DNA from: an uncultured Candidatus Saccharibacteria bacterium
GTDB lineage: Bacteria > Patescibacteriota > Minisyncoccia > Minisyncoccales > UBA10102
Direction of reading: 5' to 3'
Length of the DNA stretch: 28,420 nt
Assembly (NCBI GenBank): GCA_964485065.1
Contig: CAZAHG010000001.1
Location: 1 to 28,420 of the forward strand
In this document: piece after piece, positions 12,415 to 15,076 of the stretch
Layout of the letters: each line of letters starts with the position of its first letter
Position numbering within the stretch: position 1 is the stretch's first letter
The notes under the pieces: generated by a model
What the model was told of the DNA's origin: nothing
Database searches by the model: none
The model's input: only the letters and a program-made list of their open reading frames with translations
Program-made: the position numbers and the translations under genes

Positions 12415-12427
12415 ATGTTTCCATTGT

Positions 12428-12464
12428 AAAGAAAAAAGGGCTTTCTGAACATCAGAAAGCCCTT
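12428..12464 (-). terminator. Intrinsic terminator after the 100-aa orphan
   Basis: Perfect 12-bp stem AAGGGCTTTCTG/CAGAAAGCCCTT followed on the minus strand by a T-rich tract. Confidence 0.8.
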
Positions 12465-12483: not shown

Positions 12484-12786
12484 CTAGCCTGCCGTCACCG
12501 GCATCTCCGCGCACCGTCGCAGGGATTTGATCGCCTGCTCTGTCTTCTCGAGACGTACTCGAGCCCTCGTCTTCTCTTCGCGAGAAACCTGGGGACTGTT
12601 GATCCGCCTGCGAATGGCCTGAGCCTTGATGCTGAGACGCTCCAAGTCGGTCTTCTGGGGATAATTGAAGACTAGGTCCACGACGGCTTCCTCCTGCTTT
12701 GTGTGCTCAATCGGTTTGGCACACCCCTGCCCGTCCTCTATGGACAGGCGGGGCTGGGCCAAACATGGTTCGACTTTGCTCACCAT
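12484..12786 (-). CDS. Hypothetical 100-aa protein, basic helical C-terminus
   Basis: ATG 12786 directly follows the attenuator U-tract; flanked by its own promoter and terminator. No family recognised. Confidence 0.6.
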   Translation of the reverse strand: MVSKVEPCLAQPRLSIEDGQGCAKPIEHTKQEEAVVDLVFNYPQKTDLERLSIKAQAIRRRINSPQVSREEKTRARVRLEKTEQAIKSLRRCAEMPVTAG

Positions 12787-12925
12787 AAAAAGAAACCCCC
12801 GACTGGGAGGTTTCGTGAGTGCGACTTGAATAAACGCGTTTCTTGAAATCTCCCAGCTACAATAAGGGGACAATAATCAACAAGCCCGCAAGCAATTTCT
12901 GTACCTTGATTGTCTGGGAAATCAT
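12787..12925 (-). promoter_or_regulatory. Leader-peptide attenuator-like element (1:2, 2:3 antiterminator, 3:4 terminator)
   Basis: Terminator GAAACCTCC/GGGGGTTTC plus TTTTT (12787-12814); CTGGGAGATTTC (12845-12856) complements GAAACCTCCCAG with one mismatch; ATTTCCCAGACAAT (12909-12922) complements segment 2. Confidence 0.7.
12857..12925 (-). CDS. Putative leader peptide MISQTIKVQKLLAGLLIIVPLL (22 aa, Leu/Ile/Val-rich)
   Basis: Manual translation; 12 of 22 residues are branched-chain; the TAG abuts antiterminator segment 2. An in-frame ATG also sits at 12931. Confidence 0.6.
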   Translation of the reverse strand: MISQTIKVQKLLAGLLIIVPLL

Positions 12926-12944
12926 ATTCATATACACGATATTT

Positions 12945-12973
12945 AGTATAAGAGAACCAAGAACCCTTGTCAA
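12945..12973 (-). promoter_or_regulatory. Near-consensus sigma70 promoter TTGACA-17-TATACT
   Basis: -35 at 12968-12973, -10 at 12945-12950, spacer exactly 17 nt. Confidence 0.85.
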
Positions 12974-12975
12974 GG

Positions 12976-13010
12976 AAAAAAGGGCTTGCAACATTAAGCT
13001 GCAAGCCCTT
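12976..13010 (-). terminator. Intrinsic terminator of the ATP-grasp gene
   Basis: Perfect 11-bp stem AAGGGCTTGCA/TGCAAGCCCTT plus T-run, 12 nt after the stop codon. Confidence 0.8.
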
Positions 13011-14847: not shown

Positions 14848-15029
14848 AAAACAAAACCAGCTTCCCGTCTCCGGAAAGCTGGCTCGATTGTCGCTGTTAC
14901 ACTAATTCATTACAACACACAAGATTTGCTGAAATTAGTAAACGCAAACACCAACTTTCCGGCGGAAAGCTCATAATGCCAATAGCCGTGATAGCTGTTT
15001 AGGCGACTTTTATCAGGAAAGTTGATCAT
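14848..15029 (-). promoter_or_regulatory. Second leader-peptide attenuator-like element
   Basis: Terminator CCAGCTTTCC/GGGAAGCTGG plus TTTTGTTTT (14848-14882); GGAAAGTTGG (14951-14960) can pair with the terminator 5' arm, with GAGCTTTCC (14964-14972) or with CAACTTTCC (15016-15024). Confidence 0.65.
14910..15029 (-). CDS. Putative leader peptide MINFPDKSRLNSYHGYWHYELSAGKLVFAFTNFSKSCVL (39 aa)
   Basis: Manual translation; the YHGYWHY cluster lies immediately 5' of segment 1. Confidence 0.5.
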   Translation of the reverse strand: MINFPDKSRLNSYHGYWHYELSAGKLVFAFTNFSKSCVL

Positions 15030-15047
15030 AAATTTTCTCTGTTTCAT

Positions 15048-15076
15048 ATACTAACAGATACTAAATTAGTAGTCAA
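15048..15076 (-). promoter_or_regulatory. Sigma70 promoter TTGACT-17-TAGTAT with extended TG
   Basis: -35 at 15071-15076, -10 at 15048-15053, directly after the metG stop. Confidence 0.75.

Follow-up and report, generated by a model that had tools for sequence, protein, structure and literature searches.

The leader between positions 12973 and 12787 on the minus strand of the 28,420-nucleotide (nt) window, the whole stretch of DNA analysed here and numbered from its first letter, is probably a ribosome-mediated leader-peptide transcription attenuator for Leu and Ile that now gates an orphan gene. The element, all features of which lie on the minus strand, combines the anatomy of such attenuators with conservation in other genera, covarying helices and an open reading frame (ORF) that is frame-specific and has a fixed stop position, and it has sister leaders whose peptides match the products of the genes behind them. 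It occurs as a single copy in the genome studied, here called G000 (434 kb, 54 contigs, 94% complete), which belongs to the candidate phyla radiation (CPR) and appears to stem from aquifer metagenomes. We compared it with G001, a sister species, with G002, another genome of the same genus, and with more distant relatives.

The element is headed by a sigma-70-type promoter (12945..12973, an 11/12 match) with the hexamers TTGACA (12973-12968) and TATACT (12950-12945) separated by a 17-nt spacer. This promoter is the only strong match in 4 kb, where 2.5 would be expected from shuffled sequences, and G001 retains its two hexamers with a diverged spacer between them. The leader ORF (12857..12931) starts at an ATG (12931) located 13 nt past the -10 box, has no Shine-Dalgarno sequence, and consists of 24 codons, MNMISQTIKVQKLLAGLLIIVPLL, followed by the stop codon TAG (12859-12857), which abuts segment 2 described below. 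Leu, Ile and Val account for 12 of the 24 codons, compared with 24% genome-wide (binomial P 0.005), and codons 13-24 form a run of control codons, LLAGLLIIVPLL (12860..12895), in the loop that separates segment 1 from segment 2. The sequence-only reading had proposed a 22-residue ORF, MISQTIKVQKLLAGLLIIVPLL, with 6 Leu (4 of them UUG), 4 Ile and 2 Val. Its sequence and codon counts are correct, whereas its start at 12925 is not: this ORF begins at codon 3 of the longer one, whose ATG at 12931 is kept in G001 (MNMISQ... versus MNTTSQ...), while position 12925 reads ACC in G001. We infer from the sequence that the 24-codon ORF is translated.

Four segments of the leader can engage in three pairings. 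Segment 1 (GAUUUCCCAG, 12914..12923), which comprises codons 3-6 of the ORF, pairs with segment 2 (CUGGGAGAUUUC, 12845..12856), a Shine-Dalgarno-like sequence right after the stop codon. Segment 2 may alternatively pair with segment 3 (GAAACCUCCCAG, 12803..12814), which provides the 3' strand of the antiterminator and also the 5' arm of the intrinsic terminator that it forms with segment 4 (GGGGGUUUC plus the U-tract, 12787..12800). The terminator, GAAACCTCC-CAGTC-GGGGGTTTC followed by TTTTT (12814-12787), has a GC-rich stem of 9 base pairs (bp) and a 5-nt loop, and it is kept in G001 and at the related locus L006 with the loop and one arm changed. The pairings 1:2, 2:3 and 3:4 are mutually exclusive in G000. 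Since the minimum-energy fold holds 1:2 together with 3:4 (-42.0 kcal/mol, compared with -33.9 kcal/mol for a fold forced to hold 2:3), the terminator state is the default and the element is by default off. For G000 considered by itself, the 2:3 duplex does not differ significantly from shuffled sequences (z -1.4) and the whole-leader fold has a z of -1.75; the significance of the pairings comes from the comparison across the family. The promoter, the three exclusive pairings and the U-tract are all found where the sequence-only reading had placed them, and its proposal of a classical leader-peptide attenuator is supported by every feature that can be tested on sequence, both in G000 and in other genera.

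On the model of the trp, ilv and leu attenuators, the element may operate as follows. Transcription would start about 7 nt past TATACT, and a ribosome would load on the almost leaderless ORF. With ample charged tRNA for Leu and Ile, and perhaps also for Val, the ribosome would reach the TAG and cover segment 2, and when there is no translation segment 1 would pair with segment 2. In both situations 3:4 would form and RNA polymerase would terminate at the U-tract (12787). Starvation, on the other hand, would stall the ribosome while it translates the Leu/Ile/Val codons that separate segment 1 from segment 2, so that 1:2 is blocked, segment 2 is free and 2:3 can form. The latter helix would pre-empt the terminator and let transcription run through a structured leader into the orphan gene, which encodes 65 amino acids (aa).

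The element was found only in G000 and G001 when 61 relatives were searched with the locus by BLAST, and again when 36 genomes of the family were scanned with R1, a covariance model derived from those two sequences. However, synteny revealed diverged leader homologues in at least nine further genera, which could be reached only in this way because they are too diverged for BLAST and the covariance model. The genomes of the family retain the order metG ... small helical protein - tatD, and homologous leaders are located ahead of the small protein-tatD pair in G003, G005, G007, G008, G018, G019, G031 and G033, while looser and more distant modules precede other genes in G012, G013, G014, G017 and G023. 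The modules are made up of TTGACA-17-TAnAnT, an ATG 7-15 nt past the -10 box, no Shine-Dalgarno sequence, a short ORF and a terminator, with a GGGAG-type segment 2 and a CCUCCC-type segment 3. Every member of the leader family is headed by this type of promoter and has an intrinsic terminator after the leader ORF. In four members the ATG is only 7-8 nt past the -10 box, which suggests leaderless initiation. The peptides of the leaders ahead of the small protein-tatD pair, termed class A, are MSALQLSTTIWNLLKVLLIILPPRLGDF... (G003), MNTFGLRKLLVIISALKQVGSF... (G005), MNNFPARKFISILVLDLRKRLGDFVA (G033), MQKGLRQILVLNLITLSQGRSFHGA (G018), ...KQIVLVSKLIALRAERSF... (G007), MNTRNSQKLISLLVITPQLTGRFSHE (G019), MSYQKGIISIIEIIIPQAREAFLKHA (G008) and MQKASLAIEIISIINPTKREAFC (G031). 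In these orthologous leaders the corresponding place is occupied by runs of Ile or Leu, such as GIISIIEIIIP (G008) and AIEIISIINP, and the LLII-x-P core displays synonymous changes, as seen from TTG TTG ATT ATT GTC CCC in G000 versus TTG CTG ATT ATC CTT CCT in G003.

With regard to the reading frame, a leader ORF is present in 15 of 15 leaders. A stop before segment 2 occurs in none of the 15 in frame 0, compared with 13 in the +1 frame and 8 in the +2 frame. The first in-frame stop falls between segments 2 and 3 in 14 of 14 independent leaders; a dinucleotide-shuffle null gives a probability of about 0.22 for each, and the product, 4.5e-10, is overstated since the leaders are related. In the 13 leaders besides those of G000 and G001 the stop is located 20-34 nt ahead of segment 3, the distance being 20-23 nt in nine. 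A stop abutting segment 2, as described in the sequence-only reading, is thus true of G000 but specific to its genus (G000 and G001), since the ORF elsewhere reads through segment 2. At either position a terminating ribosome would be expected to cover segment 2 and not segment 3.

It is also evident that the helices covary across genera. G003, G005 and G033 have UUGGGAG/CUCCCAA where G000 has CUGGGAG/CUCCCAG, and segment 1 changes in step, so that C-G is replaced by U-A in both 1:2 and 2:3. An alignment-free comparison of cognate with non-cognate segments gave -19.3 versus -15.3 kcal/mol for 2:3, -17.1 versus -12.3 kcal/mol for 1:2 and -17.0 versus -13.2 kcal/mol for 3:4, and 0 of 5000 permutations reached the observed value for any of the three helices. 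A formal pair count was restricted to the 2:3 core of the MAFFT alignment, because the 5' halves were poorly aligned when whole leaders were submitted to MAFFT. Of the cells in this core 80% pair, both partners have changed in three pairs, and covariation scores 0.26 versus 0.20 (5/500 shuffles). With covarying helices and with Ile/Leu runs kept in the orthologues, the homologues agree with the sequence-only reading.

These comparisons also bear on the possibility that the switch consists of RNA only, in the form of a riboswitch or of a leader bound by protein or tRNA, the ORF being incidental. The default fold, a long 1:2 hairpin plus the terminator, is what such a switch might look like, the leader ORF has no Shine-Dalgarno sequence, and conservation within the genus is equal over the non-coding parts. 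Across genera, however, the interval between segments 1 and 2 varies in sequence and length and yet is open in one frame, and the positioned stop and the synonymous changes are the opposite of the pattern that an aptamer would show. Moreover, no Rfam family reached the gathering threshold anywhere in the window, and we regard an RNA-only switch as very improbable. At E <=10, Rfam gave sub-threshold matches to Phe_leader (19.6 bits, E 1.3) and LLnc147 (20.4 bits) on the strand of the element, whereas the sole match to Leu_leader (13.5 bits, gathering 50) was on the opposite strand. The known structured RNAs considered (SRP RNA, 6S RNA and T-box) were rejected as they gave no Rfam match.

The composition of the peptides points to Leu and Ile. 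Together these residues make up 29% of nine independent class-A peptides compared with 17% of the proteome (P 3e-6), and in 8 of 10 leaders the enrichment is specific to the reading frame. Related evidence came from a pattern scan of one genome per species. Unfiltered, the scan yielded at least 118 stretches, many of them from non-CPR taxa; it is not a census and is usable only after filtering by promoter, ORF and stop position. Among the matches listed, about 30 filtered modules have the same design, mostly in CPR lineages, the theme of their peptides being Ile (NIIIISIIIE), Leu (KLLLSLLLLTLLL) or aromatic residues. Two leaders from Daviesbacteria, MNNLRKFFYFFFAFRKEGGLV and MNLRSNLYFWFNFTFRKEGGLLG, with the Phe-run cores FFYFFFAF and YFWFNFTF, precede prephenate dehydratase (PDT + ACT, E 1e-49 to 1e-53). 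In G142, which belongs to the same order as G000, a Leu-run leader (MILTNLLTNLLLLDLLLLKNEE...) precedes the 2-isopropylmalate synthase LeuA (NF002086, 634 bits) and an Ile-run leader (...LINIIIIIKPLSGKG) precedes citramalate synthase (TIGR00977, 642 bits). The same Ile leader and the same citramalate synthase are found in G081, the Ile-run cases ranging from 642 to 645 bits. An Ile/Leu run followed by Pro is common to the leuA/cimA leaders and the class-A leaders (IIVP, IILPP, IIIP, IINP, VITP). On the evidence of design and neighbours, the leader of G000 is thus most plausibly a diverged Leu/Ile leader.

A number of observations weigh against this assignment. The orthologous leaders vary between Ile-rich and Leu-rich, so the specificity would be loose. 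The regulated orphan has no known link to Leu, Ile or Val, and a regulated gene that makes or charges the sensed amino acid is found only behind the sister leaders (leuA, cimA, pheA). The start of the leader ORF, with its ATG 13 nt from the -10 box and no Shine-Dalgarno sequence, is neither classically leadered nor exactly leaderless. Segment 1 is located about 20-50 nt upstream of most of the control codons, so a stalled ribosome would not directly mask it, and for 1:2 to be blocked the model has to invoke steric exclusion or a second ribosome queued behind the first. Within the genus, the sequence between the -10 box and the terminator is about 95-97% identical in G000 and G001, compared with 77% over the whole matched stretch, and the two leader ORFs differ non-synonymously at three codons and synonymously at one. 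The 3' part outside the ORF is conserved to the same degree, so that conservation at this level reads as RNA-level and the comparison of these two genomes alone does not show coding constraint. Finally, G002 keeps the promoter but has no leader. At that locus (L023:3740-4200) the homologous promoter (CTTGACA...CATACTTCAAA) directly drives a gene for an 84-aa protein with its own Shine-Dalgarno sequence, no leader and no terminator, and hhalign gave no support for homology of this protein to the orphan small-protein family.

The first two of these points would also be expected if the switch depended on the ribosome without being specific for any amino acid, the hydrophobic run being merely slow or prone to arrest. 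The leader would then report any slowing of translation, as caused by global starvation, ribosome-targeting antibiotics or lost coupling of transcription and translation. The conserved Pro after the run fits this idea, as does a similar leader that gates a RelA/SpoT homologue in another CPR genome. In contrast, the sister leaders are both themed and matched to a product (Leu with leuA, Ile with cimA and Phe with pheA), and composition therefore matters in this class of leaders. We consider a general sensor of slow translation unlikely.

The gene that the Leu/Ile attenuator would control (12484..12681, minus strand) encodes a 65-aa helical protein. It starts at a GTG (12681) located 8 nt past AGGAGG (12695-12690), and this Shine-Dalgarno sequence and the GTG are kept in G001 and L006. 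The protein aligns from the GTG with small proteins of seven other genomes, giving eight in total. It has no Pfam or PDB relative and no informative Atlas match, and only three clusters were found among 5.8 billion proteins. No HMGL-type (LeuA/CimA) gene was found in the G000 genome either. Both results fit the sequence-only reading, which had proposed an orphan target in a lineage generally lacking these biosynthetic pathways. It had also noted an ATG directly after the U-tract. This ATG (12786) is present in G000, where the frame is also open from it, but it is removed in G001 by a 24-nt deletion, and the start common to the family is the GTG. A longer 100-aa form from ATG 12786, which has GGGGG 9 nt upstream, is nevertheless possible in this genus, because other CPR leaders, such as that of L095, reuse the 3' arm of the terminator as a Shine-Dalgarno sequence for a start codon placed right behind the U-tract; in the extension G000 and L006 differ partly by synonymous changes.

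The transcription unit lies between two terminators. Upstream, an intrinsic terminator of the preceding 432-aa gene (12980..13010, minus strand; 13-bp stem and T-tract) insulates the promoter of the leader, and downstream a terminator with a 13-bp stem and T-tract (12436..12464, minus strand) closes the unit of leader and orphan gene. The two flanking terminators have common arms, AAGGGCTT...AAGCCCTT, and the one ahead of tatD is conserved in G001, L006 and G003. Since a strong promoter and a good terminator also bracket a unit of about 150 nt, the leader might be a small gene of its own, producing either a hydrophobic micropeptide (type-I-toxin-like or membrane-bound) or a trans-acting small RNA, with the orphan expressed separately. 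The very high nucleotide conservation within the genus would suit such a gene, and some CPR leaders of the same design (MSK..IDLKRVEIL..LLI.LL.G..LGGLFR) have a hydrophobic stretch of about 20 residues. Attenuator RNAs and leader peptides that act in trans are in addition known, as in the case of peTrpL/rnTrpL (PMC7298713). In this family, however, the hydrophobic run extends over only 9-12 residues and the peptide is poorly conserved beyond its composition. The conserved 2:3 alternative and the fixed spacing from stop to segment 3 would have no role, and neither an antisense promoter nor a separate promoter for the orphan gene, in the interval between the terminator and that gene, was found. 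An independent small gene thus appears quite improbable. A type I toxin-antitoxin system was rejected, as the plus strand contains no promoter-like site between 11000 and 15000 and the hydrophobic run is limited to 9-12 residues.

The mechanism of attenuation itself is textbook, and the Leu/Ile attenuator may be compared with several known systems. The enterobacterial leaders of ilvGMEDA (ilvL), ilvBN (ivbL) and leu (leuL; Leu_leader RF00512) likewise combine a short ORF in which Leu, Ile and Val codons abound with four segments that form exclusive 1:2, 2:3 and 3:4 pairings and with a terminator that ends in a U-tract. Their stop codon, too, is positioned such that segment 2 is covered by a ribosome terminating there. 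The element of G000 is, however, not a member of Leu_leader by sequence or covariance model. Unlike the enterobacterial leaders, its family has an ORF that starts 7-15 nt past the -10 box without a Shine-Dalgarno sequence, segment 1 is found at the start and not at the end of the ORF, and the target is a 65-aa orphan, the genome having yielded no gene of the LeuA/CimA type. The leuA/cimA leaders from the same CPR order (L170, L179, L184) are like it in promoter type, near-leaderless ATG, Ile/Leu run followed by Pro, and terminator. They differ in that they gate the first enzymes of Leu/Ile synthesis, whereas the leader of G000 gates an orphan, and the similarity is too low for BLAST or a covariance model. 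The Escherichia coli leaders pheL-pheA and pheM-pheST (Phe_leader RF01859) provide the best Rfam leader match on the correct strand, and among the CPR sister leaders those with Phe runs stand ahead of prephenate dehydratase; the control amino acids are nevertheless different and the score is far under the gathering threshold of 55. As pheST illustrates, attenuators can gate non-biosynthetic genes. Outside Proteobacteria, branched-chain attenuation is represented by the ilvBNC attenuator of Corynebacterium glutamicum and a Leu-rich attenuator peptide of Staphylococcus aureus, both of which control ilv/leu biosynthetic operons in prototrophs, unlike the element described here (PMC11857589, PMC5794164).

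Full-text searches of the literature retrieved no paper joining leader peptides, attenuation and the candidate phyla radiation, and among the papers listed for such leaders in Patescibacteria none mentions this group. To our knowledge, regulation in these bacteria is almost unknown, and few classical regulators are encoded. The value of the present case lies in the CPR lineage, the rewired target and the near-leaderless design. A conserved family of themed attenuators, if true, would mean that CPR bacteria rely on ribosome-based sensing, and would offer a handle on orphan genes, the 65-aa protein being predicted to be induced by Leu/Ile starvation. It would furthermore imply that a control device for biosynthesis can outlive the pathway it once served. 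As a tentative and rather doubtful extension, an auxotrophic CPR lineage might have kept its biosynthetic attenuators after losing Leu/Ile synthesis and rewired them to lineage-specific small proteins, so that the ribosome would report the supply of branched-chain amino acids from the host or community and switch on a starvation effector beside tatD.

The read-through leader between the attenuator and the orphan gene is itself structured. It contains a long hairpin, GUUUGGC...GCCAAAC (12714..12764, minus strand), and the fold of 12800-12670 has an energy of -60 kcal/mol (z -4.9, 0/200 shuffles). In G003, G007 and G008 the same position is taken by a hairpin that differs in sequence. In the predicted read-through fold, segment 4 and the U-tract (12787-12800) pair with the AGGAGG region (12683-12696); this pairing could provide added translational control, or it could be a trivial pairing of U-rich with purine-rich sequence. 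The unit is followed by tatD, with a -10-like TACAAT (12423-12428) located 8 nt ahead of its ATG. Similar boxes (TACAAT, TAGAAT and the like) occur 6-8 nt from the tatD ATG in most of 29 family genomes (L018-L050), which suggests a leaderless tatD mRNA and that leaderless initiation is common in the lineage. tatD is probably not under the control of the attenuator.

Further modules of the same design were observed both in G000 and elsewhere. The window contains a second one at 14848-15076 (minus strand), with TTGACT-17-TAGTAT, a 39-codon ORF (MINFPDKSRLNSYHGYWHYELSAGK...) with clustered Tyr, His and Trp residues, and a terminator of 14 bp that lies 18 nt ahead of a HAD-like gene; the 432-aa gene comes next. 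Two more combinations of promoter, short ORF and terminator are found on other contigs of G000 (C8:10777 and C7:863, both on the plus strand). The former is located 12 nt ahead of a 158-aa ORF, which we take by eye only to be GreA-like. The leader ahead of the RelA/SpoT homologue (L095:3040-4732, plus strand) encodes a peptide rich in Leu, Ile and Val, MPRTQTLDLKNLGILITNLLLVLFMGAFWGGLFR, and its terminator directly precedes the homologue, which has HD, RelA_SpoT and TGS domains and uses the 3' arm of the terminator as its Shine-Dalgarno sequence. Phe-run leaders ahead of prephenate dehydratase were seen at L089 and L118 (both Daviesbacteria) and at L099, and at L089 and L099 a conserved mini-ORF, ATGGAGAAAATATG(A), is located between the terminator and the gene start. 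Finally, modules closely resembling those of Daviesbacteria/Microgenomates were found in metagenome-assembled genomes labelled 'uncultured Gammaproteobacteria' (binchicken/SRP co-assemblies; loci L056, L060, L066, L073, L089, L095, L106, L117, L127 and L129), and these labels look doubtful.

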